From contig JBDHQI010000003.1 of the NCBI GenBank assembly GCA_039806955.1, positions 29,856 to 93,855 of the forward strand: a stretch of 64,000 nt of DNA, written 5' to 3'. This document shows positions 5,259 to 43,758 of the stretch, piece after piece; position 1 is the first letter of the stretch; each line of letters opens with the position of its first letter. The stretch is from Verrucomicrobiota bacterium. GTDB lineage: Bacteria > Verrucomicrobiota > Verrucomicrobiia > Limisphaerales > JADLHS01. The notes under the pieces are model-generated. The model was not told the origin of the DNA, made no database searches, and saw nothing but the letters and a program-made list of their open reading frames with translations. A program made the translations under genes and the position numbers.

Positions 5259-5729
5259 TTACTTCAGCGGCGCAACTTCCACGTTTTTCTTCTCCATGCC
5301 TTTGGTGGCAACGCTGCTGCCCTTGCTCGTGTTGCAGCATGCGGCACTTTCCGCGCCGCATGACGAGCAAGTGTGGGTGGCAACGGATTGTTTGGCTTTG
5401 CCGTGGCCCACGATTTTCCAATCCGTTCCGCAGCCGTCGCAGAGGTGCGTCGAGACGCGGATGAGCGGCTTGTTTGCCCCTCGCGCGGAATAATCCACTC
5501 GCTCCGTCACTTTGTCTTTGCACTTTGCGCACGGCATCGCCGGGATTTCGGCAACCGCAGGAACAGGACTGTGATTCCGCTTATACTCATCGAGGAACTG
5601 GCGCTGTTTCGGCGAGGCAGTAATGCCATCGTCGCCCGTGGGTTTGTATTGGGCCTGTGCTGAACCGGCGAACAGGGACAGGGCAATGCCTGCCAGCGCC
5701 GCGATCAGGAGGTTGTTTGTGCGTTTCAT
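5259..5729 (-). CDS. secreted fusion protein: one ASPK repeat + 8-Cys domain + VAPLK tail
   Basis: Signal peptide MKRTNNLLIAALAGIALSLFAGSAQA, then GDDGITASPKQRQFLDEY. The Cys domain follows: PCAKCK..THLCDGCG..HGKA..THTCSSCGAESAACCNT..KGMEKK. It ends NVEVAPLK. Confidence 0.75.
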   Translation of the reverse strand: MKRTNNLLIAALAGIALSLFAGSAQAQYKPTGDDGITASPKQRQFLDEYKRNHSPVPAVAEIPAMPCAKCKDKVTERVDYSARGANKPLIRVSTHLCDGCGTDWKIVGHGKAKQSVATHTCSSCGAESAACCNTSKGSSVATKGMEKKNVEVAPLK

Positions 5730-5794: not shown

Positions 5795-6091
5795 CTATTT
5801 GCCGGTCCAGACAGTGACGGAGGGCGTCGCGTTGTTCGGCGCGTGCAACTCAATGAGCCGGGCAGCGCCGCCCTTGGCGGTCTTCGCTTCGTTGCGGGAA
5901 GGCGTTGCTGACCTGGACGTCCAGATGGTGACGGACGCCGTGGCATTGTTCGGCGCGTGGAGTTGAATCAACTGCGAAGCGCCGCCTTTGGCCGTCGAGG
6001 TTTCGGCGGCGGCGACAATTCCCGCGCTCGTGACGAGCAGAGCTGTTGCGATAGTGAGCCGGGCTAGCGCCGTGATTCGATTCGTTTTCAT
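5795..6091 (-). CDS. secreted protein with two tandem ~40-aa repeats
   Basis: Start moved to ATG 6091 (MKTNRITALARLTIATALLVTSAGIVAA). Repeats are AKGGASQLIQLHAPNNATASVTIWT and AKGGAARLIELHAPNNATPSVTVWT. Confidence 0.6.
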   Translation of the reverse strand: MKTNRITALARLTIATALLVTSAGIVAAAETSTAKGGASQLIQLHAPNNATASVTIWTSRSATPSRNEAKTAKGGAARLIELHAPNNATPSVTVWTGK

Positions 6092-6125: not shown

Positions 6126-6575
6126 CTACTTGAGCGGCGCGACCTCGATGGTTTCCGCCGCAGGCTTGTAACCCCGCGCGAGCCACGGAAACTGTTCAAT
6201 GGCCCTCGGGCTGGCCGCGTAAGCGCGATTCTTGAGCACCCTGGCAATCTCACTGTTCACGGATGCTGGTGTGGTCGTCGGCTTCGCGGTGTTGACGCGG
6301 GCCAACTGCGGGAACTGCTCCAACATGCGCGGGCTGGCGGCCAGCGCGCGGTTGTTCCTGATGTTGGCTGGAACGCTGTCGAAGCGTGTGCTTGATGCCG
6401 TCGTCGCCGACGACTGACGTGTCAGCCAGGGGAACTGCTCCTTCGCACGCGGACTGGCGGCGATGGCGCGGTTGGACAAGTCTTTGACCGAGAAGTCGGC
6501 GGCTTGGATGGTTGCGGTTGCGGTGAGGAGAGCGGCGGCGACCGCTCCCAGCAGAAGTGTTTGTGTCGTTTTCAT
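6126..6575 (-). CDS. secreted repeat protein (3x AASPR..EQFPxL) with IEVAPLK tail
   Basis: 149-aa ORF with a signal peptide ..ATATIQA. Repeats are RAIAASPRAKEQFPWL, RALAASPRMLEQFPQL and RAYAASPRAIEQFPWL. The C-terminus is ETIEVAPLK. Confidence 0.7.
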   Translation of the reverse strand: MKTTQTLLLGAVAAALLTATATIQAADFSVKDLSNRAIAASPRAKEQFPWLTRQSSATTASSTRFDSVPANIRNNRALAASPRMLEQFPQLARVNTAKPTTTPASVNSEIARVLKNRAYAASPRAIEQFPWLARGYKPAAETIEVAPLK

Positions 6576-6634: not shown

Positions 6635-6659
6635 AATACGTTCGCAGAGTGGAAATCCC
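6635..6659 (-). promoter_or_regulatory. ECF-type promoter candidate GGGATT-N13-CGTATT
   Basis: Minus strand reads AAGGGGATTTCCACTCTGCGAACGTATTAAAG, 60 nt upstream of start 6575. Confidence 0.55.
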
Positions 6660-16300: not shown

Positions 16301-16912
16301 ATGGACAAATCGAAAGCTCTACAAAAGGCCACGTTGGGCGGCAGTCTTCTCGCTGCTGTCATTGCCTCGCTGTGTTGCATCGGGCCGCTGCTCGCGGTGG
16401 CGTTCGGACTCGGCGGCTTTGCCGCGTCCGCCGTGTTTGAAAAATGGCGACCGGTATTTTTGGGCGTGACGTTCGCCCTGCTCGCGCTGGCCTGGTATCT
16501 TACTTATCGCAAACCGAAAGAAAGCTGCGAGGAAGGCTCGGCCTGCGCGACCAAGCCGGCGGGCAAATGGAACAAAGTAGTTTTGTGGATTGCTACGGGC
16601 ATTGTCTTACTCACGACCGCCTTTCCCAGTCTTTCGTCGGTGATCCTTCGCGGAACGCAGTCGAGTGTTCCCGGCGCGGTCGCGGGCGATAACAGCGTCG
16701 TCTTGAAGGTGGAGATACCGAGCATGGATTGCGCGGCGTGCGCCGTCAGCATCCAGACGAAAATGCGCAAGCTGGCAGGCGTCATCACCGCCAGCGTCAA
16801 CTACGACACGAAGGAGGCCGAGGTGCAATACGACGCCACAAAACTCGCGCCGGAGAAGATCATCGCGGCCATTGATGAAACCGGGTTCAAGGCCGAGCCT
16901 GCCAACAAATAA
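16301..16912 (+). CDS. MerT-like transporter fused to a MerP-like HMA domain (MerTP)
   Basis: TM1 has the vicinal Cys pair (ASLCCIGPLLAV) and there is a second Cys pair, CEEGSAC. The C-terminal ferredoxin-like HMA domain carries MDCAACAVSI. Confidence 0.85.
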   Translation: MDKSKALQKATLGGSLLAAVIASLCCIGPLLAVAFGLGGFAASAVFEKWRPVFLGVTFALLALAWYLTYRKPKESCEEGSACATKPAGKWNKVVLWIATGIVLLTTAFPSLSSVILRGTQSSVPGAVAGDNSVVLKVEIPSMDCAACAVSIQTKMRKLAGVITASVNYDTKEAEVQYDATKLAPEKIIAAIDETGFKAEPANK

Positions 16913-16933: not shown

Positions 16934-17446
16934 ATGTCAGACTGCTGCTTAATCAACTCAACGGATGAAAAGCCTTGCCCCGAAACAGAGAGGGCCGGAG
17001 CGAGCAATTGCCCGGAATGTGGTCACCCCGGCAAGGCCGTCGAAACGAAAACGCTGAAACAAATGGTGCAACCGCAGCACCTCGAACTTGCCAGCAAGCC
17101 GGGTTTCTTGTTTTGCCGCACCGCAGATTGCGACGTGGTTTATTTCCATCCTGACGGCGACTGTTTGCGGAAGCCCGATGTGCGCGTGCGGGTGGGACTC
17201 AAGGAAACCGAAGATCCCGTGCCTGTCTGCTACTGCTTCGGGTTCACGGAGGCGATGGCCGTGGAGGAAATCCGTGCGACCGGCAAATGCAGCATCCCGC
17301 GACGCATCACCGCCGAAGTGAAAGCCGGAAACTGCGCCTGCGAAATCCGCAATCCGCAAGGCTCATGCTGTCTGGGCAACGTCAACGCCGCAGTCAAAAG
17401 AGTGATGAGACTCATGGCGGTCGAAAACCCGGCAGCACTCCCCTGA
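16934..17446 (+). CDS. Cys-rich CopZ-N-terminal-domain-like metallochaperone (Zn/[2Fe-2S]-type)
   Basis: CPECGHPGKAVETKTL.., FLFCRTADCDVVYF, RVGLKETEDPVPVCYCFGF and NPQGSCCLGNV. This matches my recollection of the Archaeoglobus CopZ N-terminal domain family. I cannot confirm it without a profile search. Confidence 0.65.
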   Translation: MSDCCLINSTDEKPCPETERAGASNCPECGHPGKAVETKTLKQMVQPQHLELASKPGFLFCRTADCDVVYFHPDGDCLRKPDVRVRVGLKETEDPVPVCYCFGFTEAMAVEEIRATGKCSIPRRITAEVKAGNCACEIRNPQGSCCLGNVNAAVKRVMRLMAVENPAALP

Positions 17447-27932: not shown

Positions 27933-27957
27933 ATTACGCCGGTGCGCGGCAAATCCC
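27933..27957 (-). promoter_or_regulatory. ECF-type promoter candidate GGGATT-N13-CGTAAT
   Basis: Minus strand reads TGAGGGATTTGCCGCGCACCGGCGTAATACAAG, 39 nt upstream of start 27894. It heads the RND operon 2 gene string. Confidence 0.55.
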
Positions 27958-29371: not shown

Positions 29372-29869
29372 TCAATTTCCAACGCGACTGTAAGTGTCGG
29401 TGCGCGAAACGTCGTCGTGATTCATCATCTGCTCGCGCAGGCAGGTTTGCTCCTGCACCCAGGATAAATAGCGCCTACCTTGTTCCGGCGGCATGGCGCG
29501 GCTGACTTCAAAGAAATGCTTGAGCATCGCGGTCTGACATTCGCTTCGCATTTTGGCCCGTTCGGTGAGTGCGTTTTCAATTGCGGGCGTCAGGTCGGAA
29601 GTGGTGGCAAGCAATTGGCCCAGCCTGTCGTTCATTTGCCGGATGAGACGACAACGCTCCCGGCACTGCGGGAGATAGGCTTCATGCAATTTTGAAAGCC
29701 GCTCGAATTCCCCGTCGCTTAATTTGAACTCCTGCTTGAGCCAGACGAGTTCGGGTTGGCGGCTTTGCAACAATGCTCGCGGCCCGGTCGTTCCTGCCAG
29801 ATAGATGCAGTAATAGGAAGCAATTGCTGCCATCATACCGAAACCGAGAATCAAGAATCCGCGTCGCAT
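29372..29869 (-). CDS. membrane-anchored helical periplasmic sensor, CnrX-like architecture (copy 2)
   Basis: N-terminal TM (FLILGFGMMAAIASYYCIYL). It shares PEL.WL..EF, LH.AY.P.C.E.C, R.EC.TAML.HF and MPPEQG.RYL.WVQ.QT with 31666-32154. Confidence 0.7.
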   Translation of the reverse strand: MRRGFLILGFGMMAAIASYYCIYLAGTTGPRALLQSRQPELVWLKQEFKLSDGEFERLSKLHEAYLPQCRERCRLIRQMNDRLGQLLATTSDLTPAIENALTERAKMRSECQTAMLKHFFEVSRAMPPEQGRRYLSWVQEQTCLREQMMNHDDVSRTDTYSRVGN

Positions 29870-29872
29870 AGC

Positions 29873-30217
29873 TCACCTGGCCGCTTGATAGGGATCAACC
29901 GATTGCACATAGCGCTGGCTCATCTGTGTGCTAACTCGCAACCTCTCCTGCTGCGCCTGCGCCCACCCCGCACTTGCACCAATGACGAGGAGGATCGCCA
30001 CGTAGGAAACGGCCAACCCGGGGCGGCGCAACCGCGCGTCAACCCAGCGCGCGCAAGTCAGCCACAGGGCAACGAGAGTGGAAGGCTCGTCTTCTTGGCG
30101 CGCGATTTGTCGCCAGACTCTCTCTTGGAAACGCGGTGGCAACGTGACTGTGATCTTGCACTCGCGCAACAAGGCGCTCAATCCCGCGTCCTGCTCAATT
30201 CGTGCTTCGGCTTTCAT
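29873..30217 (-). CDS. single-pass anti-sigma-like protein, CnrY-like architecture (copy 2)
   Basis: 114 aa with LPPRFQERVW in the cytoplasmic part, one TM (LAVSYVAILLVIGASAGW) and a short periplasmic tail ending YVQSVDPYQAAR. Paralogue of 32155-32493. Confidence 0.6.
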   Translation of the reverse strand: MKAEARIEQDAGLSALLRECKITVTLPPRFQERVWRQIARQEDEPSTLVALWLTCARWVDARLRRPGLAVSYVAILLVIGASAGWAQAQQERLRVSTQMSQRYVQSVDPYQAAR

Positions 30218-30227
30218 TGTTTGATTC

Positions 30228-30257
30228 GGAGGGCGGTGGGTTTGAGCCGCGCCCTCC
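30228..30257 (-). other. GC-rich stem-loop between repeat-protein gene and anti-sigma-like gene
   Basis: GGAGGGCG (30228-35) pairs with CGCCCTCC (30250-57), 11 nt upstream of the 30217 start. Its position is equivalent to the hairpin at 32501-32525. Confidence 0.4.
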
Positions 30258-30287
30258 AGTTTGGTGGTTGCCGGTTTTGATTCGCTC

Positions 30288-30692
30288 TCACTTCAATGGC
30301 GCGATCTGGTAAGCGCCGTTGCGCTCGTCGAGAAACTGACGGAGTTTCGGCGAGGCTGTGATACCGTCATCGCCGGTCGCGCGATAGCCGACCTTGACGA
30401 CTGCTGTTCCGGGCATGCTCTCCACACCACGGCTGTCATTGATGAATTGCCGCAGTTTCGGCGAAGCGGTTATCCCATCCACGCCGGTGGCTCGATAACC
30501 GACGGACGCGACGGTGGCAGACTTCGCGCCTTTCACCATCGGCTTGCCGCGCTCATTCATAAACTGGCGCAGTTTGGGAGACGCCGCGATGCCATCATCG
30601 CCCACGGTGTTGTGTTGAGCCTGGCTTTGGCTGGTCGAGGCGAGCAAAGCGACTGCGGCGGCTGCAATCAGAATCAATTTTGTATTTTTCAT
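30288..30692 (-). CDS. secreted repeat protein (3x DGI(T/A)ASPKLRQF) with YQIAPLK tail
   Basis: Start moved to ATG 30692 (MKNTKLILIAAAAVALLASTSQSQA). Repeats are GDDGIAASPKLRQFMNERG, GVDGITASPKLRQFINDSRG and GDDGITASPKLRQFLDERNG. It ends AYQIAPLK. Confidence 0.75.
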   Translation of the reverse strand: MKNTKLILIAAAAVALLASTSQSQAQHNTVGDDGIAASPKLRQFMNERGKPMVKGAKSATVASVGYRATGVDGITASPKLRQFINDSRGVESMPGTAVVKVGYRATGDDGITASPKLRQFLDERNGAYQIAPLK

Positions 30693-30834: not shown

Positions 30835-31041
30835 TCAGCGTTTTTCGACTAGCGCCATACCGCACTTGGGGCAGCTACCGGGCTTGTCCTGCACAACTTC
30901 CGGGTGCATACCACATGTGTATTTGACGGCCTGTCCACTGCCTTGCGTGGAGGATTCTTTTTTGCAGCCGGTCGCACCAATGGCAATGACTGCGACTGCT
31001 GCAACCGTGAACGCAGCGATGATGAGTTTGGATGTCTTCAT
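30835..31041 (-). CDS. small lipoprotein consisting of one HMBD module
   Basis: [26 protein letters not shown], then a short linker, then [28 protein letters not shown]. Confidence 0.7.
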
Positions 31042-31072: not shown

Positions 31073-31669
31073 TCACGCGTAACTTTTCAGCAGCCAGCCG
31101 AGGTTTTCGCGCAAGAGTTTTCGGGCGCGGTAAATCCGCGTCTCCACCGCCTTTGGAGTGCAAGCCAGGATCGCGCCAATCTCCGCATGGGAAAGTTCCT
31201 CATATTCGGAAAGGATGAGTGGCGTGCGGAGTTCTTCGGGCAGTTGACCCACCGCGTTACGAACGGCTTCCGCCCGCTCTGCGCCTTGCAGTGACTCGCT
31301 GGGTGTCGGTTTGTCCTCCGCCACGCTCTCCCGGAAGCTCTCGCCGGTAACTTCGTTTTCTGCGTCCAGCGACACTTGCGGATGGCGCGTGCGGTAGCGG
31401 TAGCGGCTTTTGACGAGGTTGGTGGCGATAACGTAAAGCCATGTCGAAAACTTGTGGCTCGCATCGAACCTCGCGCGGTTCTGGTAAACGCGCACAAATG
31501 TCTCCTGCGCGAGATCAGCGGCATCCTCCTCGCTTTGCAAACTGCGGACCAGATAGTGAAACAGTTTCTCGGCGTGTCGCTCCATGAGATCGTTCAACGC
31601 CGCGTCGTGGCCGGCGACCAATCGCGCCATGTCCGTCCGATCCGGGTCGTCGGTCGTGGCGGAATTCAT
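31073..31669 (-). CDS. ECF sigma factor (CnrH-like position in a Y-X-H module)
   Basis: Start moved to ATG 31669 ([17 protein letters not shown]..), giving an ATGA overlap with the upstream stop. Region 2 is [42 protein letters not shown]. Region 4 is [33 protein letters not shown]. Confidence 0.85.
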
Positions 31670-32154
31670 GGTTTGTTCATCGGAGCGACAGACGGCGAAT
31701 CGCCGGGCATCATCTTGCTCGGCTTCAAGGTTTGCTGCTGCACCCAATCGAGATAGCGTTTGCCCTGCTCGGGGGGCATGGTCTGCGCGACCTTGTAGAA
31801 GTGGTCAAGCATCGCGGTTTCACACTCGGCGCGGATTTCAGCAGCTTGGGCGAGCGCCTGTTTGATCTCCGGGGTGATGATGTTGGTGGCGGCGAGCAAC
31901 CTTTGGATTTCTGCGTTCTTCGCGTCAATCGTGCGGCACATTTCCTCGCACTTGGGCGCGTAAGCATTATGCAGTTCCATGACACGCGCCAACTGCGCGT
32001 CGGTGAGTTGAAACTCCATCTGCAACCACGCCAGCTCCGGGCGGGTGTTGCGTTCAACAGAACGCTGTGCGGATGTTTTGCCGAAATAGATGCAAAGGTA
32101 GGCGCACACCGCGAGCGCCAGCCCGCCGAAGATGATGAGCCACGGACGTTTCAT
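31666..32154 (-). CDS. membrane-anchored helical periplasmic sensor, CnrX-like architecture (copy 1)
   Basis: N-terminal TM (WLIIFGGLALAVCAYLCIYF). Helical periplasmic domain with C-x3-C (PKCEEMC), AEC, HF and MPPEQGKRYLDWVQQQT. Confidence 0.7.
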   Translation of the reverse strand: MKRPWLIIFGGLALAVCAYLCIYFGKTSAQRSVERNTRPELAWLQMEFQLTDAQLARVMELHNAYAPKCEEMCRTIDAKNAEIQRLLAATNIITPEIKQALAQAAEIRAECETAMLDHFYKVAQTMPPEQGKRYLDWVQQQTLKPSKMMPGDSPSVAPMNKP

Positions 32155-32493
32155 TCAGTTGCGGGGCGCTTGATACGGGTCAATGGACTGAACGTAGAGA
32201 GAGCGCATCTTGGATTCGGTTTGCGCGGTCTTGTCCTGCGCTTGCAAGTAGCCCGCTCCCAAGCCGACGAACAGGAGCACGGCGACATACACGGTGGCAA
32301 ATGCCGGACGCCGAAACACGGCCTCAATCCAGCGAACAGCCCCGGCAAAGACGCTCTGCGGCTTGCTTGCTTCCGCCCGGTCAATGGCTTTCCAAACCCG
32401 CTCTTGAAAGCGTGGCGGCAATGATGATTGTGGCTTCCACTCGTGGAGCAGTCCGCTCAACTGCCGGTCATTTTCGGGAATAGGTGTTTTCAT
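32155..32493 (-). CDS. single-pass anti-sigma-like protein, CnrY-like architecture (copy 1)
   Basis: 112 aa with LPPRFQERVW, a TM (FATVYVAVLLFVGLGAGYL) and a tail ..YVQSIDPYQAPRN. Its stop abuts the next start (TGAATG). Confidence 0.6.
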   Translation of the reverse strand: MKTPIPENDRQLSGLLHEWKPQSSLPPRFQERVWKAIDRAEASKPQSVFAGAVRWIEAVFRRPAFATVYVAVLLFVGLGAGYLQAQDKTAQTESKMRSLYVQSIDPYQAPRN

Positions 32494-32500
32494 AACGTGT

Positions 32501-32525
32501 GGGCGGCGGATTCATTCCGCCGCCC
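32501..32525 (-). other. perfect 10-bp GC stem-loop between repeat-protein gene and anti-sigma-like gene
   Basis: GGGCGGCGGA (32501-10) pairs with TCCGCCGCCC (32516-25) with a 5-nt loop. It ends 8 nt upstream of the 32493 start codon and has no U-tract. Confidence 0.5.
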
Positions 32526-32558: not shown

Positions 32559-32909
32559 TTACTTCAGCGGCGCGATTTGAACTTCAGCCTTGCTGACGGC
32601 GTTGGCGCGGAGCGCGGCCTCGTAGCGCGAGTCTTTGGGCGACATCGTGGGGCGCGGCGCATGGGCCAGGTCAATACTCGGACCAGTGCTGGGCACAGAG
32701 CGGAAACTGCGGGCGAGTTCCCACGCTTTGGCGTTTCCTGCCGGGCGGTCCAGCGCCAGATTCACGTCGCTGGTGGCGGCGGGGACTTTCTTGAGCGAAT
32801 CGGCGAGGGCTTTGGCCTTCGGCGAATAGAGGGGTTCACCGGCATTGGCGTTGGCCGCGAGCGTGAACACACCGACAGCGGCAACTGCGAGGAGGATCAT
32901 TTTTTTCAT
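32559..32909 (-). CDS. secreted divergent SPK/AKA-repeat protein with VQIAPLK tail
   Basis: Start moved to ATG 32909 (MKKMILLAVAAVGVFTLAANANA). Degenerate repeats are YSPKAKALADSLKKVP, GNAKAWELARSFRSVP and MSPKDSRYEAALRANA. It ends AEVQIAPLK. Confidence 0.7.
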   Translation of the reverse strand: MKKMILLAVAAVGVFTLAANANAGEPLYSPKAKALADSLKKVPAATSDVNLALDRPAGNAKAWELARSFRSVPSTGPSIDLAHAPRPTMSPKDSRYEAALRANAVSKAEVQIAPLK

Positions 32910-32963: not shown

Positions 32964-32988
32964 AATACGCCGGGGGTCAAAGAATCCC
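32964..32988 (-). promoter_or_regulatory. ECF-type promoter candidate GGGATT-N13-CGTATT
   Basis: Minus strand reads TGGAGGGATTCTTTGACCCCCGGCGTATTCAAGG, 55 nt upstream of start 32909. The unit it heads contains the sigma gene 31073-31669. Confidence 0.55.
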
Positions 32989-33080: not shown

Positions 33081-33932
33081 TTATCGCGCTTGGATGCGCT
33101 TTTCCAAGATTACGCGACCGGCCTTTGCATCAATGGTGACGGTGGAAAACCGGGAAAGCAGGCCGTTGCCGAGCAAACCAGCCTCGCCGGGAAAGATTGC
33201 CTTTTCGTGCAAGCCGGTTGGAACGTCGGAAAACTGATTTCCACCAATGCCGACAGATGTTTTGGTCTGAGGAATGGAAATCTCGGCCAAGCCGATGGCC
33301 ATCTGGTGCGTGCATTGGTCGGGCACATCCGAAGTCACCCATTGCAGCGCGGTGGCGCAACCGGTGTCGAGCCGCACCCATTGGCGGTCGTGACCATTTA
33401 CGCTGATCGGCACGCGCATCCCGCAGGAACGCAATTGGAGCGGCAAAGTTTCGCCGGATTGTCCGCCCTTCGGTGATTTCACCAACCGTATCTTCTTCGC
33501 GTCGAAATCAATTTGCACCACGCGCTCGCGAAAGAAATCCGCACCCACCAGTCCGTCCACGGGTCGCTCGCATGAACTGCTCAACTTTTCCAAATCAACC
33601 GCCAGATATTCGCTGGGCAACTTCGTGTCGCCGATTTTGGCGATCATGTGTTGCTGCCAATAGCCGGTGAGCATCGTGTCCACGCCGCGAACCGTGACCT
33701 GTTGTCCCAGCTTCAATCCGATGCGTTTGGCCGTGTCGAGATTGATGACGCTGACGCCCGCGCCGGTATCTACGAGAAAATTGAGCGGCTTCTCCGACTG
33801 CGGGATGACGACTTTGATCCAAAGCAATCCCTCGCGGTATTCAAACGGAAACTCGGTGGGAGAAGTTGCCGCCACTTCGTCGCGAGCAAACGCGACTTGA
33901 ACGGCTAAAATTGAGCACAACAACCAACGCAC
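33081..33932 (-). CDS. secreted two-lobed retropepsin-like aspartic protease
   Basis: Signal peptide MRWLLCSILAVQVAFA. Two catalytic-type motifs, FLVDTGAGVSVI and VRLDTGCATALQW, each sit in a ~120-aa lobe. Confidence 0.75.
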   Translation of the reverse strand: MRWLLCSILAVQVAFARDEVAATSPTEFPFEYREGLLWIKVVIPQSEKPLNFLVDTGAGVSVINLDTAKRIGLKLGQQVTVRGVDTMLTGYWQQHMIAKIGDTKLPSEYLAVDLEKLSSSCERPVDGLVGADFFRERVVQIDFDAKKIRLVKSPKGGQSGETLPLQLRSCGMRVPISVNGHDRQWVRLDTGCATALQWVTSDVPDQCTHQMAIGLAEISIPQTKTSVGIGGNQFSDVPTGLHEKAIFPGEAGLLGNGLLSRFSTVTIDAKAGRVILEKRIQAR

Positions 33933-34454: not shown

Positions 34455-37400
34455 ATGGACATCTTTGAAGTTCACCGTCGAATTATGGACGATTATGCGA
34501 GCTACATTCGCAGTTTCGTTTCCATTTCTGATGATGAGATGCGCAAGCGGGTCGAGCAGCATCTGAATGACGGGCATCTCTGGCCAGAGCCGCTGCTGAC
34601 ATTCAATCCGTCGTTCGCGAAGGTTGGACGGATTGAAGAACTCGTCGCGTCGAAGGTGTTGGCCGCGCCATTGGGGGATGCGTTTCGTGGCTACGAATTG
34701 TTCGAGCACCAGTTGCAGGCGATCCAGCTTGGCGCGGGCGGCAACGATTTCGTTGTCACCTCCGGCACAGGTTCAGGGAAATCGCTCACTTACATCGCTG
34801 CGATTTTTGATCACTTGTTCAAGTCTGGCAATCCGATGCCGAACGGAGTGACGGCGGTAATCGTTTATCCGTTGAACGCGCTGGTGAATTCACAGGAGGA
34901 GGAGCTTCGCCGTTACGCTGAAAATTACAGCCTGGCACGCGGCGGCGAGAAATTTCCCATTCGCTTTGCGAAATTCACCGGCCAGGAGGACAAAACCCGC
35001 CGTGACGAATTGGAAGCTGAACCGCCGCACATTCTCCTCACGAATTACATGATGCTGGAGTTGCTGCTGACCCGTGGGGGGCAACGAACCTTGCGAGAGG
35101 CAATTTACGATCAGGTTCGCTTTTTAGTTTTTGATGAGCTGCACACCTATCGCGGTCGGCAAGGCGCGGACGTTGGCCTGCTCATTCGCCGGATTCGGGC
35201 GCGGGCAAAACACCCGGTCGTCTGCATCGGCACTTCTGCGACGATGATTTCGGTCGGCACGATTGCGGAACAAAAGCAACAGGTGGCGAAAGTCGCCGAA
35301 CAACTTTTCGGAAAGTCCTTCAATCCCGAAGCCGTCGTTCGTGAAACGCTGGTGGCAAAATTTCCCGGCGCTCCCAAATCGGACGCTTTGAAATCGGCTG
35401 TTGCCACGCCGGTGAACATAAACGCGCCGGAAGCGGCGCTGTTGGCGCACCCGACAGCCGCATGGCTCGAAGCTCTCATCGCCTTGGCCGAGCGCGAAGG
35501 GCAACTGGTTCGCAACAAGCCGTTGCGCTTTTCCGATGTCGTCGCTTTGCTGGCGGATGCAACGGGCCTTTCGCAACCGCAGTGCGATGCTCATCTGCGC
35601 GAAGTTTTGCTTTGGATTGGCGGAACGAACAAGCGCCTGCTCGATTCGGGCAAGCGATACACGCACCTGCCGTTCAAGCTTCATCAGTTTTTTTCTCAAA
35701 CGGGCGCGATCTACGTCACCCTCGACCGGGGAGCGGAACGTCACATTACGTTGCAGGCTGGGTATCATGTCGTCGGCGAACCAGACAGGCCGCTGTTCGC
35801 CGCCGTCTTCAGTCGCTACTCCGGCGAGACGCTCCTTTGCGTCTCGAAAGACCCGGCGGGCCGCAAACTGATGCCGCGTGCATTTTATCCGTCCCAAGAC
35901 GAGGAAGACGACATCACACGAGGCTATCTCATCCCGAACGCCGACTTGTGGAATCCCGAAACTGATTTGGAACTGCTGCCCGATTCCTGGCTGGACATAA
36001 ACTCCTCCGGGCAAATCCGCGTGCAAAAGAAATACAAAGCGCGGATACCGCAACGCATCTATTACGACACCCACGGCAATTGCTCGGATGAACCGCGTGA
36101 GGGCTGGATGCAGGGATGGTTCATGACAGCGCCGTTGCTGTTCGATCCGACTTCGGGACTGATGCCCGACCGTCAGACGAAGGATTCCACCAAGCTCAGT
36201 CAGCTTGGCACTGAAGGTCGCAGCACGGCGACTAGCATTTCTGCTTTCGCGATTCTCACACGAATGGCGGAACATGGCTATCGGCTGCGTGACCAAAAAC
36301 TTCTCAGCTTCACAGACAATCGGCAGGACGCCGCGCTTCAAGCCGGGCACTTCAACGACTTCATGGATGTCGTCCGGCTGCGCTCGGCGATTCGCAAGGC
36401 CGTCGAGATGGCGGAAGGAAAGGAACTCCGCCTCACTACGCTGGGTCGGGCGGTGCGCGTTGCCAGCGGCCTTCGATTTGATGATTACGCGACGGGCGGT
36501 TCGGACCTCCCGGAATTTCGCAAACGCATTTACGAAGAAACACTGGAAAGCTACTTTGCGTTTCGCTCAATCCACGACCTGCGCCGTGGCTGGCGCGTGG
36601 TGCTGCCCAATCTCGAACAATGTGCGCTACTAGAAATTGACTACGACCATCTCGACGAGATTGCCGCGATGGACAAACTCTGGGCGGATGTTCCGGTGTT
36701 CAACCAAATCAGCGCAGGCGACCGCCGTGAGTTGATTCGTGCGACGCTTGATTTCTTCCGGCACGAATTCGCGCTTCATAGCGAATCGTATCTGACGGAA
36801 GCGAAAATCAAGGAACACGCGACGGCCTTCCGCGAACGGCTTCGCGCGCCGTGGCGGTATGAGGATGAAGACGATATTCCGTCGCCCGCTTCGATTCGCA
36901 CCGAATCGCTCGCGCGTTACAGTCGCCGCGAGACGAGGAGCATCGGGCCGCAAAGCGGATACGGAAGGTTTGTGCGTCGTTTCGCGCAAGACAAACTGAA
37001 CCACACATTGAAGGCTGCGGACTACCAGGACTTCATCGAGAAGTTGTTGGCCGCGCTGGAAAACAAAGCCGGTTACTTGACCAGCACGGAAGCTAAAAAT
37101 CGCGAGGGCAAACCAACTCGTCTCTACCAACTGAAACTCACGGAAGTCATTTGGAAGCCCGGCGACGGTCAGACCGTGCGTGCGGACGCAGTGAAGTCGC
37201 GCGCTTACAAAAAGCTCGAACTTCGTCCGAATTCATTTTTTCAGGGCGTTTATCGCCGCGATTACGGCGTCGGAAAGCTGCTGCTCGCCGCCGACCATAC
37301 CGGGCAACTCAACTACAAAGACAAGCAGGATCGCGAGGATCGCTTTCGCGCGGAGTGGAAGACGAAAGATGGTCGCGACGACGAAAGCGAAATCCGTCGC

Positions 37401-37550
37401 CGCTCCATCAGTTCGCTGTTCTGTTCGCCAACAATGGAATTGGGGATAGACATCGGCGGCTTGAGTGTCGTCCACATGCGGAACGCGCCGCCGAATCCGG
37501 CGAACTACGCGCAGCGCAGCGGTCGCGCGGGTCGCAGCGGACAGCCACCG
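34455..37550 (+). pseudogene. SF2 DEAD/DEAH-box helicase of the large defence/repair-associated type, truncated just after motif VI
   Basis: Motif I TSGTGSGKS, Ia VYPLNALVNSQ, II FDELH, III TSATM, VI QRSGRAGRSGQP. Immediately after motif VI (about nt 37545-37555) the frame switches to hydrophobic membrane-protein sequence. No C-terminal domain (for example DUF1998-type) is present. Confidence 0.6.
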
Positions 37551-38048
37551 GAATACATCCACACGCTGCTGAATCCGCTGCCAGTTTATGGATTAAGCAT
37601 GGGTGTGCTGGCTTTGATGGCAGCCTTGTTCACGCGAAGTCGTGCAGCGAAGGGCGTCGCGCTGGGAATCATCATTCTTACATCGGCGGCGGCGTGGCCA
37701 GTTCTGCATTACGGGCAGAATGGTTATCAAAACGTCAGCAACACCAGCGATGAAGAAGGGAGACGCTGGCTGGCGGAACACATGGCGCGCGCGGCAAAGT
37801 TTATCTGGGGATTTTACGCGACCGCGTTGCTCGGTGTTGCCGCGCTGGTCAGTTTGAGAAAATTCCCGAAGGCAGCGAATCCACTGACGGTGACGACGCT
37901 GATTGTGGCCGTGATTTCGCTGGGCGTCGGCGCGTGGGTCAGCCGCGCGGGCGGACAAATTCACCATCCGGAATTTCGCCACGAACCCGCGCCGTTGGAT
38001 TCTTCCTCAGCCAGTGAAGATCATCATTCATCAGAAGCAAACCAATAG
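37551..38048 (+). pseudogene. 3' fragment of a polytopic membrane-protein gene fused in frame to the helicase
   Basis: ..YGLSMGVLALMAALF..GVALGIIILTSAAAWPVLHYG..FIWGFYATALLGVAALVSL..LTVTTLIVAVISLGVGAWV..HHPEFRH.. followed by a stop. It is followed 7 nt later by a multicopper-oxidase 5' stub, so it looks like a piece of a copper locus. Confidence 0.5.
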
Positions 38049-38994: not shown

Positions 38995-39131
38995 AGCGGT
39001 CGAAACATCTTTTCGACCGCTGTCACTTTGTTGCTGATGCTCCGCTGCCCGGCGGCGCGGGCGCAGACGGGTGCGTTTCGTCAGGAGCGGGGCTGCTCTC
39101 TCCGTGCGGTGAAGAGAGCAGTCCCGCTCCT
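38995..39131 (+). other. two long perfect or near-perfect hairpins in the radC leader
   Basis: Hairpin 1: AGCGGTCGAAA (38995-39005) pairs with TTTCGACCGCT (39011-21). Hairpin 2: a ~19-bp stem, 39083-39101 with 39113-39131 (one G-T), and an 11-nt loop, ending 20 nt before the radC ATG. Confidence 0.5.
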
Positions 39132-39150
39132 TCGGAACGAAACGCAAAAC

Positions 39151-39696
39151 ATGAACACAACGGAAAACCTCATCTCCACTGGATGCCCCGCAACCACTCC
39201 GCAGCCCATCAATCAAATCATCAAGCCGGTAAAATTCCCGGCTCAACCGCAGGAATGGAAAATCGTATCACTTCGGGAATGTCCCACACCTGACACAATG
39301 CAACAGTGCGAAACACCGGATCAGGCAGCCGCCTATTGGAAAACGCACATCGCGACACATCCTTACTTCAATTCTGAATGTGAATGTCTGGTGGTGTTCA
39401 TCCTCAACACACGTCGGCGCATCAAGGGTCACTATCTGGTGTCCATTGGAACGATGGATACAATTCTCTGTCATCCCAGGGAAGTATTCCGTTTAGCAAT
39501 CATGGCGAGTGCCGCTGCAATCATCATCGCGCACAATCATCCGAGCGGTGAACCAACTCCGTCCGAAGCGGACATCAAAATCACCCGCGACCTCATCCGA
39601 GCCGGTCAACTTCTTAAAATCGAAGTTCTCGACCACATTGTAATTGGAAATCCCAACCATTCATCGCTCCGCTCCTTGGGTTATTTTTACTCCTAG
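39151..39696 (+). CDS. radC: RadC-like JAB/MPN domain protein
   Basis: Start moved to ATG 39151 (MNTTENL..). JAMM motif is AAIIIAHNHPSGEPTPSEADIKITRDL, followed by LDHIVIG. Confidence 0.85.
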   Translation: MNTTENLISTGCPATTPQPINQIIKPVKFPAQPQEWKIVSLRECPTPDTMQQCETPDQAAAYWKTHIATHPYFNSECECLVVFILNTRRRIKGHYLVSIGTMDTILCHPREVFRLAIMASAAAIIIAHNHPSGEPTPSEADIKITRDLIRAGQLLKIEVLDHIVIGNPNHSSLRSLGYFYS

Positions 39697-39780
39697 CCGA
39701 TCACGGCTTTCCCAAAAAAGGGGAGACCGCTGCTTGATCGAGCAGGTTGGACGACCTTCATTCCGTCCCCGACAGATTTC

Positions 39781-40137
39781 TCATTCCTGGTCTTTTTGAG
39801 CGCGCTTCTCAACATCTTTGGTCTCCGTAACGACAATTTCGACAATCACCGGCTGTCCCTCCGCAATTAGTTTCCGCTGACTGCTGGACAAAGCGGCGAG
39901 GAATGACAATTCCATTCGCTGCATCGTCGTCTCGATTCGGCGCAAGGCGTTGCCGCGAATCAAAACCTCGTGGGTCGCGAAGACCAAACGAAGATGCTGC
40001 TGCTTCGCTTCGGTTTTTAGTTCGGCGAAAGCGAACTGGTCAAACGGCAGCAATAGACTCCGTTCAGCCGACAGTTCGATTTTGACGCCGTGAGCGTTCG
40101 GATCGCTCGACCAACATTCGGGTGTTTTTGTGTTCAT
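39781..40137 (-). CDS. hypothetical protein (mobile-element accessory?)
   Basis: 118-aa ORF with balanced composition. It overlaps the Arg-rich 3' tail of the relaxase-helicase frame by 74 nt. No family recognised. Confidence 0.4.
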   Translation of the reverse strand: MNTKTPECWSSDPNAHGVKIELSAERSLLLPFDQFAFAELKTEAKQQHLRLVFATHEVLIRGNALRRIETTMQRMELSFLAALSSSQRKLIAEGQPVIVEIVVTETKDVEKRAQKDQE

Positions 40138-41461
40138 GTTTTTGCATTGGTTTTAGGTGACGACGATGCGCCAGTTTCAGCCGACAAAACGTGTCGGCGG
40201 CACGTTGTCCAAATCGAAGCATGTAGCCGTGCAACCGATCCCATAGCAGACGGCGTCCGCGCGGAACAAAGCCCGTCGCGAATTCCATTGCCAGTGGCCG
40301 ATGGCCGGAGCGGGTGACATTCTCGCGTAGCTGTTGCTTGTCCGGCGTGAAGATGCGGATGCCACGCCGCCCCCGCGAAATGGTCACATACCATTGCTGC
40401 GCGTTCGTCGCGGGCTTGATGGTCGAATCGGAGAACAAAACATAATCCACCGTCTTGCCTTGCGAACCGTAGGACGTGACCGCGTAGCCGGGAAGAAATT
40501 CACGGAATGATTTGTCCAGGACGCGGCCATCGGTGAGTTCAACTCCACCATCGGGACGAACTGACTTTGCGGTGACAAGCTCGCCATTCGTGACGCGCCC
40601 GCCCGAAGCCAGTTTGCGGTTCGCTTTGAGATGAAGACGGTCGCCTTGTGCGACCGAGATTTCGCGCGGGAGATAAACCGTAACGTGATCCAGAACTTTA
40701 TTTGAAACGGTGATGAACTTCCCGCCGACCTCGACGAGCACGCTTGATTTCAAAATGCCCGCCAGCTTTCCTTTCGCGCCCGGTTCAGCTTCACGCACTT
40801 TCTGATTGAAGACTACGACGGCATCAGGCGGGTAGAATCGTTCATCCCGTTTCTGCGCGTTCGTCAGGTCGAGCTTGTCCAGGACTTGAACCGCCGTGTC
40901 GGTTGCACCGAGCAACCCTTTGCCTTTGAGCGCATCGCGGACGCGCGAGTTGACCCGATGCACTTCACCCCAAGTCTGCGAGACGACGACCGCCGAAGCG
41001 TCTTGCTCGGCGAGTCGAAGATATTCTTCTGCCAGCTTGTCGGCTTGATCGCCCAAGCCGCACGCCACGACTGCGCCCATCTTGTCGAGGCGTTCAAACG
41101 ATTCACTCAATTTGCCCGCCGCCGCTGATTCGACCGCGTTTCGATAATCCTTGATGCGTGTGCGCTCATCGGCGTCTTTGCCAAGCGCGGGGTCTTGCCG
41201 ACGAATCTTGTGTAACTCGACCGGCCTGACGCCGGCGTGCCGCTCAATTGCCAGCAACGCGTCCGAAGCCTCAACTGCTCCGTGCTGCCGCGTGTCGCCC
41301 GAAAGAATCATTCGAGCATTACGCTCGCGGACCAACCGCATCAATTCCAACATTTGCCGCCCACCGATTTGCCCGGCCTCGTCCACGACAACGACGGCGT
41401 GTTCAGCCAGTTCACGCTTGAGGATGAAATTGGCGACCGTGGTGGGCGACGGGAATGGCGC
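40064..41461 (-). pseudogene. 5'-truncated conjugative relaxase-helicase (TraI/TrwC/MobF-type helicase half only)
   Basis: The frame is open from the stop at 41462-64 and begins mid-domain: ..ELAEHAVVVVDEAGQIGGRQMLELM..ARMILSGDTRQHGAVEA.. (Walker B onward). UvrD_C-like YAVTSYGSQGKTVDYVLF is present. There is no Walker A, no relaxase domain and no plausible start (the track M is an internal GTG). Confidence 0.65.
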
Positions 41462-41516
41462 TTAGGAAGGCACGCCGGGAGTGTGCATGTTTGGTTCAGG
41501 AATCGGCTTGTCGCCT

Positions 41517-41573
41517 GATTAGTTTAGGCGGTATAGTTAAAGCATGGCTTTAACTACGCGCCACAAACTAATC
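41517..41573. promoter_or_regulatory. nested palindrome centred on the abiEi-like start codon (candidate autoregulatory operator)
   Basis: Outer arms GATTAGTTT (41517-25) and AAACTAATC (41565-73). Inner arms AGTTAAAGC (41535-43) and GCTTTAACT (41547-55) flank the ATG at 41544-46. Both tiers share the same centre (41545). Confidence 0.5.
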
Positions 41574-42287
41574 AAAAGCCTGCAAACAGCTTTCCCACGC
41601 GGGACGCCGTTTGACCATCAACAACTGGCGAAATTGGGCGTGTCGTCGGCGTTGGCGCATCATTATTTGAAGTCGGGCTGGCTGACGCGACTGGGACGCG
41701 GTGTCTTTATGTTTCCGAACGACACATTGCGTCGGGACGATTGTTTGAAATTCCTGTCTCGTCAAATGCCGGGCTTTCACGTTGGCGGGAAAACAGCATT
41801 GGCTTGGCGCGGCGTTCGCCACAACCTGCCCGCACGTGAACCGCTGTCATTGTGGGGCGAGGGAAAGGCCAGCTTGCCGGAATGGTTTGAAAAGCTGTTT
41901 CCGTCGCGCTACACGACGCGAAACCCGTTCTCCCCCAAGTTGCCAAAGAACTTTGGCCTGCAACCGCTGCCCGAAACGTCCGGCGGAGTTCTCGTCTCCG
42001 TGCCGGAGCGAGCGTTGCTGGAAATGTTGAGCGAAGTGGGTGTGCATCAGGGAATCGAGGAGGCCCGCAATATCATGGAAGGGGCAAGGTCGCTCAGGCC
42101 AGAAGTGTTGACCACGCTGCTGAAGAACTGCCGGCGCGTCAAAGTCGTGCGGCTTTGCGTGAGTTGGGCAGAAGAACTTAACTTGCCGTGGGCCGACGCA
42201 GCGAAAAAGGCAGCGGAAAAGCGATTGGGCCGCGGTCGCTGGATGCATCGCCTCAAGGACGGAACATATCTCGTGCTGAAATCATAA
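41544..42287 (+). CDS. AbiEi-like (type IV TA antitoxin family) wHTH regulator
   Basis: N-terminal FDHQQLAKLGVSSALAHHYLKSGWLTRLGRGVFMF fits the AbiEi N-terminal wHTH pattern (..G.L.R..RG.Y). It is 247 aa. No nucleotidyltransferase toxin gene follows. Confidence 0.65.
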   Translation: MALTTRHKLIKSLQTAFPRGTPFDHQQLAKLGVSSALAHHYLKSGWLTRLGRGVFMFPNDTLRRDDCLKFLSRQMPGFHVGGKTALAWRGVRHNLPAREPLSLWGEGKASLPEWFEKLFPSRYTTRNPFSPKLPKNFGLQPLPETSGGVLVSVPERALLEMLSEVGVHQGIEEARNIMEGARSLRPEVLTTLLKNCRRVKVVRLCVSWAEELNLPWADAAKKAAEKRLGRGRWMHRLKDGTYLVLKS

Positions 42288-42557
42288 TGGACAAAGCTTA
42301 TAGGCGGCTGCCTGATCCGGTGTCTCGCACTGTTGCATGGTGTCGGGTGCCGGCGAGCGAACGAAGCGGTCCTTGCGGACAGCTACGTTGGCGTTGAATT
42401 ACCAGCGACGAACAGGCTCATCTGGCTGAAAGGCCAAGTGACGCACGAATTGTTGGGACGGACAGGACAGACACGACGAATGTGACCGGAAAAGGCTCAA
42501 AATCCCAATTTGCGGGTGTGAAAATAAGAAGCCGGCTTATTTGCGTTTTTTGGCTTT

Positions 42558-42588
42558 CGTGAAAATAGCGAGCTGTGCTATTTTCACG
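42558..42588. promoter_or_regulatory. perfect 12-bp inverted repeat upstream of fic
   Basis: CGTGAAAATAGC (42558-69), 7 nt spacer, GCTATTTTCACG (42577-88), ending 16 nt before the fic ATG (42604). Confidence 0.45.
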
Positions 42589-42603
42589 GTCGAAAGTAAC
42601 GAC

Positions 42604-43758
42604 ATGGCCAGCCAATCGAACATTCCGGGCCGGAAAGTGCCGCTGGGCAAATACGAAGCCTTCGTGCCTGCCCCACTGCCGCCCAAGTTTGAATGGACGC
42701 CGCGATTGATTCGAGTCCTTTCGGATGCTGATCGTCTGATTGGAAAACTTGCCGGGGAAGGCGGACGCCTGCCGAACCCGCATGTCCTCATGCGACCGTT
42801 CGTGAAACGTGAGGCCGTTCTTTCCAGCAAAATCGAGGGGACACAGGCCACGCTCGGTGAACTGCTGGCGGCGGAAGCGGGCGCAACCGTGGATCGCAGT
42901 CCCGAAGACTTGCGCGAAGTGGGCAACTACGTCATCGCGCTGGAACATGGCATCGCCCGACTGAAAGACCTGCCGCTTTGTGTCCACATCATCCGCGAGT
43001 TGCACGAAAAACTGATGACGGGAGTTCGCGGCGAACAAGCGACGCCCGGACGCTTCCGTAAAATCCAGAACTGGATTGGGAAACCCGGCAGCACGCCGCC
43101 CACGGCGTCCTTCGTGCCGCCACCGCCCGATGAAGTTGAACCGTGTCTGGCTGCGTGGGAAAAATTCGTTCATGATTCGGATTTGCCGCCGTTGATCACC
43201 GTGGCGCTGGCACACTACCAGTTTGAAGCCATCCATCCGTTCCTCGACGGCAATGGCCGTGTCGGTCGTTTGCTCATCACGCTCTTTCTGATTGAACGTG
43301 GCATACTGCCCACGCCGCTGCTCTATCTATCCGCATTCTTTGAGGCCGCACGCCGGGATTACTACGATGGCCTGCGTGGAGTGAGCGAGCGCGGCGAATG
43401 GAACGAATGGCTTGAATACTTTTTGCTCGGCGTGGCGCGCATGTCTGACGATGCCCTGAACCGCGCGACGCGGATCAACACAAAACTCGCCGACTGGCAG
43501 AAGAAAGTGGCTGGCGACTCGACCAACGCGCCGTTGCGCGTGGTGGAACTTCTGGCGGCGAATCCTTTCATCACCGCGAAAGGCGCGGCGGACAAACTGG
43601 ACGTGGCGTTCACGACGGCACAACGCGCAATTGAGCGATTGGCGCGATTGAAGATCGTGAAGCAGGTCGGTGACGCCAAGCGCGATCGCGTTTATTGTGC
43701 CGATGCATTGCTGGACATTCTGGAAGAACCGGCACAATTACGACCACAGAAAGAGTAG
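42604..43758 (+). CDS. Fic/DOC family protein (AMPylase-type) with N-terminal inhibitory helix motif and C-terminal wHTH
   Basis: Start moved to ATG 42604 (MASQSNIPG..). The active-site loop is HPFLDGNGRVGRLL. The upstream SSKIEG matches the (S/T)xxxE(G/N) auto-inhibition motif. Confidence 0.9.
   Translation: MASQSNIPGRKVPLGKYEAFVPAPLPPKFEWTPRLIRVLSDADRLIGKLAGEGGRLPNPHVLMRPFVKREAVLSSKIEGTQATLGELLAAEAGATVDRSPEDLREVGNYVIALEHGIARLKDLPLCVHIIRELHEKLMTGVRGEQATPGRFRKIQNWIGKPGSTPPTASFVPPPPDEVEPCLAAWEKFVHDSDLPPLITVALAHYQFEAIHPFLDGNGRVGRLLITLFLIERGILPTPLLYLSAFFEAARRDYYDGLRGVSERGEWNEWLEYFLLGVARMSDDALNRATRINTKLADWQKKVAGDSTNAPLRVVELLAANPFITAKGAADKLDVAFTTAQRAIERLARLKIVKQVGDAKRDRVYCADALLDILEEPAQLRPQKE

Follow-up and report, generated by a model that had tools for sequence, protein, structure and literature searches.

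Tag-directed proteolysis in bacteria is known mainly from cytoplasmic AAA+ proteases, and C-terminal recognition in the periplasm mainly from PDZ proteases. The ssrA tag and the C-terminal ClpX-binding peptide of SspB (..LRVVK) are both C-terminal peptides that dock a protein to a protease or cause its degradation. Described here is a heptapeptide, referred to as the tail, at the extreme C-terminus of four predicted secreted proteins encoded in a 64-kb stretch of DNA with 58% G+C (the window, taken at its full length). A secreted aspartic protease (PR) and an extracytoplasmic function (ECF) sigma factor with its candidate sensors are encoded in the same window. The closest public DNA comes from metagenome-assembled genomes of Limisphaerales (Verrucomicrobiota), with locus L007, whose protein of type A (see below) is 90% identical, as the best match. 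Our best guess from the sequences is that the tail belongs to a known kind of element, the C-terminal recognition tag, as an undescribed variant. It may be a portable recognition tag, most simply a degron, for the co-inherited periplasmic aspartic protease with its two Asp-Thr-Gly (DTG) motifs, and the probability of this reading is put at roughly 0.4.

Like ssrA and the SspB peptide, the tail is a short conserved peptide at the very end of unrelated bodies, for which coupling to one protease is proposed here, and like the SspB peptide it ends in hydrophobic residues followed by lysine. The ssrA and SspB systems are cytoplasmic and use AAA+ proteases, whereas the candidate partner of the tail is predicted to be periplasmic, ATP-independent and pepsin-like; the sequences themselves are unrelated. 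A precedent for action on C-terminal tails by bacterial clan AA aspartic peptidases, the class to which PR belongs, is RimB, a retropepsin-like enzyme of Pseudomonas that trims the C-terminal poly-Glu tail of RpsF, and whose relatives, the RloA peptidases, are secreted and needed for envelope stress tolerance (PMC12239564). Both enzymes consist of two identical single-domain subunits and cleave poly-Glu; PR, in contrast, is probably one chain whose two lobes each carry a DTG motif, and its candidate tag is hydrophobic, proline-containing and lysine-ended. PR also has no ATP-grasp or transglutaminase-like neighbour.

The regulatory genes beside the tail genes compare with the CnrYXH nickel/cobalt switch of Cupriavidus metallidurans, an ECF system in which the C-terminal periplasmic part of CnrY binds CnrX (PMC6851896). 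As in CnrYXH, there is a single-pass anti-sigma candidate (Y), a membrane-anchored sensor with a Metal_resist domain (X) and an ECF sigma factor; cnr is autoregulated and controls resistance-nodulation-division (RND) efflux genes. Unlike the window, cnr has no tail protein as its first cistron and no aspartic protease. A further comparison is with CpxP, of the same superfamily as X, which is a stress-induced periplasmic modulator, a folded helical dimer, removed by DegP. The tail proteins resemble CpxP as small, presumably induced periplasmic proteins tied to a stress system, with a level that would, as proposed here, be set by proteolysis. They differ from it as repeat proteins that are disordered in the one type modelled, and CpxP has neither a dedicated C-terminal tag nor a dedicated protease gene beside it.

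The tail and the proteins that carry it

Four genes of the window, designated types A to D, encode tail proteins, and a fifth repeat protein, type E, is encoded between C and D (aa, amino acids):

30288..30692, minus strand: type A tail protein, 134 aa, with signal peptide; ends YQIAPLK, tail codons 30291-30311
32559..32909, minus strand: type B tail protein, 116 aa, with signal peptide; ends VQIAPLK, tail codons 32562-32582
6126..6575, minus strand: type C tail protein, 149 aa; ends IEVAPLK, tail codons 6129-6149
5259..5729, minus strand: type D tail protein, 156 aa; ends VEVAPLK, tail codons 5262-5282
5795..6091, minus strand: type E repeat protein; ends WTGK, with no tail here

A preliminary description of this DNA had reported four secreted proteins ending in (V/I)-x-(V/I)-APLK, and all four minus-strand open reading frames (ORFs) were confirmed; in a six-frame scan of the 64 kb they were the sole stop-terminated frames ending in AP[LIVM][KR]. 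All the DNA fetched contains 5576 complete ORFs with 80 codons or more; AP[LIVMF][KR] is the end of 118 of them, whereas about one would be expected by chance, according to our rough estimate from amino-acid frequencies. The N-termini of A to D are lysine-rich, then hydrophobic, and close with AxA in every case, so the proteins are presumably exported through Sec to the periplasm; none of the four signal peptides has a lipobox cysteine. Pfam and NCBIfam profiles gave only sub-threshold chance matches to types A to D, with nothing above a curated cut-off, and a type-A profile run against PDB sequences found no relative (best E 0.52). The family had not been recognised in the preliminary description, and no characterised family was matched by these searches. 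Literature searches on the tail family, and on ECF, aspartic protease and Verrucomicrobia together, found no description, and the family appears to be undescribed in the libraries and literature searchable here.

The tail consensus is [FYIV]-[QME]-[IV]-A-P-[LV]-K-COOH. A search with type A returned 498 proteins, none with a Pfam domain and, apart from two evident mis-annotations, all without a name or called 'hypothetical'. Among the best 120 of these 498, the tail is kept in 107 (82 APLK, 23 APVK and 2 APMK). In an independent search with type B, which returned 178 proteins, 116 of the best 120 end in AP[LVIF]K. The possibility raised earlier that the tail might be absent from orthologues does not hold for the type-A and type-B relatives, in which it is conserved. 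Across 93 aligned type-A sequences, whose mean column identity is 49%, residues A131, P132 and K134 never vary. At the DNA level, 101 distinct gene ends use all four alanine, all four proline and both lysine codons as well as all three stop codons, and several synonymous forms of the leucine and valine codons. Because the synonymous tail codons vary freely, the constraint acts on the peptide and not on an RNA or DNA element; judged from these patterns, the tail peptide is under purifying selection. An exhaustive search of 1.84 billion cluster representatives (50% identity clusters) with the type-A profile gave 355 clusters at E ≤1e-3, and by this count the family is small and lineage-restricted.

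The tail had earlier been set apart from sortase and exosortase signals, and this distinction was upheld: the motif occupies the last seven residues, with the stop codon directly after the lysine. As nothing follows it, the tail is not of the sortase, exosortase or rhombosortase type (LPXTG, PEP-CTERM, GlyGly-CTERM).

In distant members the tail loosens (..VARVK, ..VASVK, ..IAPRK) or gains 2-8 residues, and the final lysine is the most persistent position. Of 62 distinct protease-tail pairs, 61 have a tail that ends in lysine, and each tabulated class has at most one or two members that end otherwise. A lysine that is last in more than 95% of members, the divergent ones included, would suit an attachment point, at which an L,D-transpeptidase would link the epsilon-amino group to peptidoglycan and so fix the proteins in the periplasm during metal stress. 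Braun's lipoprotein (Lpp), an abundant small envelope protein that likewise has an invariant C-terminal lysine, is joined to peptidoglycan through that residue (PMC8263019, PMC10653827). Unlike Lpp, the tail proteins have a different motif upstream of the lysine, no lipid anchor and no sign of an L,D-transpeptidase linkage, and outer membrane tethering is impossible for proteins with neither lipobox nor membrane anchor. No YkuD-type gene was found among the scanned window ORFs or the neighbour lists, and rare arginine-ending members and extended tails exist. Peptidoglycan attachment would also leave the six conserved residues before the lysine, and the linkage to the protease, unexplained, and is considered very improbable.

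The bodies that precede the tail are built from repeats. Type A contains three GYRATGxDGI(T/A)ASPKLRQF units, type B the looser modules YSPKAKALADSL and MSPKDSRYEAAL, and type C three NRAxAASPRxxEQFPxLAR units. Type D has one type-A-like unit, DGITASPKQRQF, followed by four CxxC pairs, and type E has two KGGAxxLIxLHAPNNATxSVTxWT units. The repeats were thus found as first described, apart from the spacer of type C, which is AASPR-x2-EQFP and not x3. When signal peptides and tails were trimmed, A and D had only a 21-residue module in common, A and C were marginally similar, and the similarity of B to C was non-significant (E about 2); B had none to A, D or E, and E matched none of A to D. Bodies B and E, with no detectable likeness to the others, carry the same tail, which at the level of sequence makes the tail modular across bodies. 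In type E it is found in relatives of the window protein (L026 648-1004, ..NLAPLK; L005 8274-8672, ..FQLAPLK), and type C orthologues with the tail occur in L026, L027, L032, L033, L038 and L041. Orthologues of types D and E occur with or without the tail, which indicates that it is gained or lost as a unit.

SP[K/R] occurs once or more in 404 of the 407 distinct tail proteins, on average 2.5 times per protein, and hybrids of type-A and type-B halves exist. Single-linkage clustering placed 402 of the 407 sequences in one network, joined through the hybrids and the shared SP[K/R] module. The idea of many independent body families was dropped, since the clustering merged nearly all bodies, and they are described instead as a mosaic superfamily of secreted SP[K/R]-helix module proteins. 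Type A, the only type modelled, is predicted to be a largely disordered string of such modules: an AlphaFold2 (AF2) model from the 93-sequence alignment has no global fold (predicted template modelling score 0.21), and each repeat forms a local beta-bridge and a ten-residue helix starting from S-P-K, with a predicted local distance difference test score (pLDDT) of 70-85 and linkers below 50.

With most bodies connected, common descent could explain part of the sharing of the tail. The tail might then have no receptor acting in trans. It could have a structural role or mediate self-association, for example as a short beta-strand through which the proteins oligomerise, or it could just be the remnant of a mosaic paralogous family that has evolved most slowly. 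The single network is in keeping with this. The tail is, however, far better conserved than any body segment, stands on B and E bodies without detectable likeness to the others, and is gained or lost as a unit; the AF2 model of type A gives it neither secondary structure nor intramolecular contacts. The link to the protease does not fit either, and a tail without a receptor is judged very improbable.

One large protein, P0393 (1871 aa), matched the type-A profile at E 1e-37. It carries about 22 tandem repeats of about 38 aa (GNALYGLxNLTDSPEVRQVLxALALKIQAS) and no tail, and was rejected as a member of the tail family, being a different protein with a convergent SP-x-x-RQ-x-L helix start.

The aspartic protease and its pairing with the tail

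The candidate partner of the tail is encoded next to the type B gene:

33081..33932, minus strand: PR, predicted secreted, probably single-chain aspartic protease with DTGAG and DTGCA motifs, immediately upstream of the B promoter

PR matched PF13975 with 39.8 bits (cut-off 28.2) and PF13650 with 38.5 bits (cut-off 24.3), as expected of clan AA, and its N-terminus is signal-peptide-like. Two DTG motifs are present in all 120 PR homologues among the matches listed, and the enzyme is probably single-chain and bilobed. The AF2 model of PR (pLDDT 51) gave, over its full length, a weak Foldseek match to bilobed pepsins of fungi and plants (E about 1e-3, template modelling score 0.36), which was taken as weak support only.

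The loci compared all belong to a single order of uncultured bacteria and are related by descent, so that the p-value and the percentages implied by the counts are descriptive and do not represent independent tests. For the forward comparison, 39 genome loci were seeded with type A and scanned with our own hidden Markov models for Y, X, sigma factor and protease. Counted per assembly, with at least 10 kb sampled, tail and protease were both present in 11 assemblies and both absent in 8; five had the tail without the protease and none had the protease without the tail (Fisher p 0.002). One cell of this table was corrected by hand for L015, whose tail, EFAPLK, lay outside the search pattern. For the reverse comparison, a metagenome search seeded with PR gave 422 relatives, from which 80 loci were kept and 56 could be evaluated by their flanking DNA. 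A tailed ORF (at least 80 codons, ending AP[LIVMF][KR]) lies within 2.5 kb in 52 of the 56. The two genes are on the same strand in 62 of 66 PR-tail pairs, with a median gap of 129 nucleotides (nt), and the pair is convergent in L012, L021 and L107. Next to PR stand bodies of types A and B, of a B2 form, of B/A hybrids and of other kinds, all with a constant tail.

On four metagenome contigs with relatives of A (50-77% identity), the common order is protease, tail gene, Y, X and sometimes the sigma factor, followed by HMBD, DUF3347 and Cus/Czc pump genes; further upstream, their neighbours differ (JetC/D, BilABCD, Fic or a large unknown protein). The pairing of protease and tail gene thus persists when its surroundings or its orientation change. 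In a mutual information analysis of tail positions against protease columns (62 pairs), made with no structural or phylogenetic control, the top columns were scattered. Locus L020 holds two copies of the protease gene (144-2001), overlapping tail to tail on opposite strands, upstream of a type-A-like gene with the extended tail ..VEIAPIVPAK.

Loci in which the tail is missing bear on the choice of partner. In four loci the first gene before Y, X and sigma encodes a signal peptide and one DGI(A/T)ASPKVRQxLNE module, with no tail and a Cys-rich CC/CCC end (e.g. ..EICCCKASCCVATH):

L035, 9767-10240: tail-less first gene
L036, 4436-4732: tail-less first gene
L042, 9938-10261: tail-less first gene
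L043, 9863-10186: tail-less first gene

From their sequences, the products of these genes look like periplasmic thiolate metal binders, for which they are candidates. An aspartic protease was found in none of the three tail-less loci with full 10-kb flanks, in which Y, X and sigma are kept and RND pumps are present in two. Tail-less type-D proteins (L028, L037, L040, L044, L045) also lie in protease-free loci. Conversely, L012 has a type-A gene and the protease together, with no Y or X found within 10 kb. Taken over these loci, gene content shows the tail to co-occur with the protease rather than with the sensor. Several partners had been named in the preliminary description, and the protease at 33081-33932 is the one among them that comparative data back, through co-occurrence and adjacency. 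Components of the RND pumps were also considered as the receptor and rejected, because tail-less loci keep the pumps. The protease gene itself lacks the ECF-type promoter motif described below: none of 82 protease genes has it upstream, and 47 of 81 have it just downstream, in the spacer before the tail gene. On this pattern the protease is placed outside the ECF regulon.

The tail could also be read by a receptor encoded elsewhere, either a PDZ protease of the DegS, DegP, Prc or CtpA type or another C-terminus binder, and the adjacency of the aspartic protease would then be inherited synteny. Periplasmic PDZ proteases classically bind free C-terminal peptides, and the five tail-bearing assemblies without an aspartic protease in the sampled DNA would be accounted for. 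An analogy with DegS and the C-termini of outer membrane proteins (OMPs) had been drawn before, and the tail does share with the YxF end of OMPs, which activates DegS through its PDZ domain, that a free C-terminal peptide of envelope proteins is proposed as a signal in an ECF pathway. The analogy is weakened by the last residue, which is lysine and not phenylalanine or another aromatic residue; the PDZ ligands of DegS, DegP and Prc have hydrophobic or aromatic ends. Neither the window ORFs that were scanned nor the listed neighbour genes yielded a PDZ domain. Unlike misassembled OMP barrels, the tail proteins are predicted to be soluble and, in the type-A model, disordered, and they are products of the regulon and not its input. 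A receptor elsewhere would further leave the joint loss of tail and protease unexplained, and is considered decidedly unlikely.

Two properties of a protease-docking or degron tag were found for the tail, namely a short terminal peptide shared across dissimilar proteins and co-inheritance with a protease, and we propose that tail and protease may be in physical contact. Several points weigh against recognition by PR. The relatives of PR are close (55-92% identity) and come from one order, so that the association could in part be conserved synteny. The protease is missing from the sampled DNA of five assemblies with the tail, two of which are cut at a contig edge. Aspartic endopeptidases are not known to require a free C-terminus with a final lysine, and the tails extended by 2-8 residues in some lineages argue against a strict need for a free carboxylate. 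The operon of types C, E and D is not adjacent to the protease gene, and the pLDDT of 51 marks the protease model as one of low confidence.

A more specific form of tag recognition by PR is possible but tentative. The heptapeptide ..[FY]-Q-[IV]-A-P-L-K might direct ATP-independent proteolysis in the periplasm, by marking the stress-induced secreted repeat proteins of a whole regulon for a dedicated pepsin-like protease that acts as a timer or feedback of the CnrYXH-like switch, or that processes multi-unit precursors into single SP[K/R]-helix peptides. In the main and most economical reading, that of a recognition tag for PR, the protease would be produced constitutively, independently of the ECF promoter. 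Metal stress would be sensed by the pair of CnrX-like sensor and CnrY-like anti-sigma factor, and the released sigma factor would strongly induce the tagged proteins as the first cistron, with a stabilising or attenuating hairpin ahead of the regulatory genes. The protease would then recognise the free C-terminal peptide and degrade or process the tagged proteins, shortening their lifetime; for A and B, this proteolysis may tune feedback on the sensor module of the same operon. The tagged proteins may be plain substrates, decoys, inhibitors, or precursors that are cut into single modules.

If recognition by the protease holds, a portable C-terminal tag paired with a pepsin-like protease in an ECF metal-stress regulon would be a new solution to three problems. 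One clade of the bacterial clan AA peptidases, which are poorly understood, would gain a function, the recurrent 'hypothetical' first cistrons of verrucomicrobial metal-resistance islands would be accounted for, and synthetic biology might obtain a compact pair of degron and protease for use in the periplasm. Should the link to the protease fail, the tail still defines a clean, searchable family with a clear regulatory context.

Promoter motif, hairpins and operons

The motif GGGATT-N13-CGTAWT has four exact sites in the window, all on the minus strand, against 0 expected. The sites that precede tail genes, and the hairpins that follow two of these genes, are:

32964..32988, minus strand: ECF-type promoter motif GGGATT-N13-CGTATT, 54 nt upstream of the B start codon
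30739..30763, minus strand: one-mismatch motif GTGATT-N13-CGTAAT, 46 nt upstream of the A start codon (30692)
6635..6659, minus strand: ECF-type promoter motif, exact, 59 nt upstream of C, at the head of the C-E-D operon
30227..30258, minus strand: GC hairpin GGAGGGCG..CGCCCUCC between A and Y1, without U tract; z-score -2.0
32501..32525, minus strand: GC hairpin GGGCGGCGGA-loop-UCCGCCGCCC between B and Y2, without U tract; z-score -3.4

The tail genes had been said to be always the first behind the ECF motif, and three of the four to follow it directly. The first statement was too strong, as D stands third in the C-E-D operon, without a motif site of its own. The second stands for B and C, which follow exact sites, and for A only when one mismatch is allowed; the GTGATT variant in front of A recurs in the orthologous loci L007, L008 and L009. 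Among the 39 type-A-seeded loci, the motif lies no more than 160 nt upstream of the gene in 14 of 18 cases for type A, 6 of 7 for type B and 6 of 11 for type C. It is presumably the target, in its GGGATT-N13-CGTA form, of the adjacent ECF sigma factor. GGGATT-N13-CGTA is also found before a tiny lipoprotein-like ORF with Cys and His, which lies ahead of a Cus-like pump (4103-4127, minus strand), and before a His-rich 153-aa protein ahead of a Czc-like pump (27933-27957, minus strand), and a one-mismatch site precedes a 191-aa unknown protein (9300-9324, minus strand). These three sites probably help to outline the regulon.

Read from the B promoter, the order is B, hairpin, Y2, X2, ECF sigma factor, HMBD protein, A promoter, A, hairpin, Y1 and X1. 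The earlier observation that two of the genes are followed by a GC hairpin and then by an anti-sigma/sensor pair was borne out by the hairpins located between A and Y1 and between B and Y2. In 52 distinct related intergenic regions, the gap between tail gene and Y has a median of 72 nt and a median folding energy of -28 kcal/mol, and a GC stem with compensatory variants is found in nearly all. The hairpin is likely to be an intercistronic stabiliser or attenuator, by which the first cistron would be expressed above the regulators. In the 39 loci, Y follows within 55-150 nt after 14 of the 16 type-A and 4 of the 7 type-B genes that have enough downstream DNA, and C, E and D form a separate operon, usually beside a Cus-like pump. 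Linkage of tail genes to ECF, anti-sigma and CnrX-like genes, which the preliminary description had left to be looked for in other genomes, recurs in the related loci.

The sensor module and the metal island

The regulatory genes of the window are:

29873..30217, minus strand: Y1, small single-pass CnrY-like anti-sigma candidate; periplasmic end RYVQSVDPYQAAR; no Pfam or NCBIfam match
29372..29869, minus strand: X1, membrane-anchored CnrX-like periplasmic sensor (Metal_resist); PF13801 E 1.2e-8, above cut-off
32155..32493, minus strand: Y2, second CnrY-like anti-sigma candidate, 112 aa, single-pass; NF052375 E 2.5e-4, below cut-off
31666..32154, minus strand: X2, second CnrX-like sensor; PF13801 E 1.5e-12
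31073..31669, minus strand: ECF sigma factor; Sigma70_r2, r4_2 and TIGR02937 above cut-off
30835..31041, minus strand: small HMBD protein between the sigma gene and the A promoter; PF19335 E 1.3e-14

Y1 and Y2 fit the class II CnrY type by size, single transmembrane segment and gene position, with a profile match that is weak and sub-threshold. The best PDB sequence matches of X2 are CnrX and NccX, at a non-significant E of about 0.1. The sigma gene, listed as an ORF from 31747, probably starts with the ATG at 31669, which overlaps the stop codon of X2; the L001 orthologue has 198 aa. In 25 distinct Y proteins the periplasmic motif RYVQx[VIL]DPYQ is conserved and is followed by 2-5 variable residues, and the motif is likely to be the contact for the CnrX-like sensor. 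The Y C-terminus (..DPYQAPR) had been considered as a mimic of the tail and was downgraded, as only the internal motif is conserved in the 25 proteins and the last residues vary.

A ligand for the X sensor was among the roles that the preliminary description had suggested for the tail. The tail would then bind the CnrX-like sensor or the X-Y complex, and the induced tail proteins would compete with Y and so feed back on the release of sigma. Genes of types A and B stand directly ahead of Y and X on a common transcript (14 of 16 for type A, 4 of 7 for type B), and the conserved Y motif ..[VIL]-D-P-Y-Q is loosely like [IV]-A-P-L-K; the docking of the C-terminal part of CnrY in the cavity of CnrX remains as a precedent (PMC6851896). 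The suggestion is weakened by the loci with X, Y and sigma but no tail (L035, L036, L042, L043), in which the first gene has the DGIxASPK module and a Cys-rich end, and from which it follows that X and Y do not need the tail to function. The conserved part of Y is moreover internal, its last 2-5 residues being variable; types C, D and E are encoded away from X and Y; and in L012 a type-A gene and the protease stand together with no X or Y within 10 kb. Recognition of the tail by the sensor is therefore regarded as rather unlikely. The SP[K/R] module, unlike the tail, is present in every Y-X operon examined and may for that reason contact the sensor pair; that the module is the part that talks to the pair is speculation.

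Two Y-X pairs adjoin the one sigma gene, in contrast to cnr. The metal ligands of CnrX are His42, His46, Glu63, His119 and Met123. By eye, X1 and X2 carry not this His/Met site but a conserved CxxxC with a further Cys and His, which suggests a thiophilic metal (Cu, Ag, Cd or Zn).

The surrounding 44 kb (1-44000) contain two RND systems, one Cus-like and one Czc-like, as well as MerT-HMA (16301-16912), a zf_CopZ-domain protein (16934-17446) and DUF3347 (11870-12517). Three ECF sigma paralogues lie in the island (12475-13341, 13910-14575 and 31073-31669), and genes of the mobile-element type follow it (RadC, AAA_30, AbiEi and Fic; 39028-43758). Positions 1-44000 look like a mobile metal-resistance island. 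Two small proteins of the glycogen-binding CBM48/AMPK1_CBM type are encoded inside it (6762-7214 and 13376-13831, minus strand), one of them just downstream of a two-mismatch motif site, an association that was unexpected. Beside the protease gene, a 1197-aa ORF (34455-38048, plus strand) combines DEAD and Helicase_C domains with a final stretch of about 170 residues that resembles four or five transmembrane segments, and may be a fusion or an island junction.

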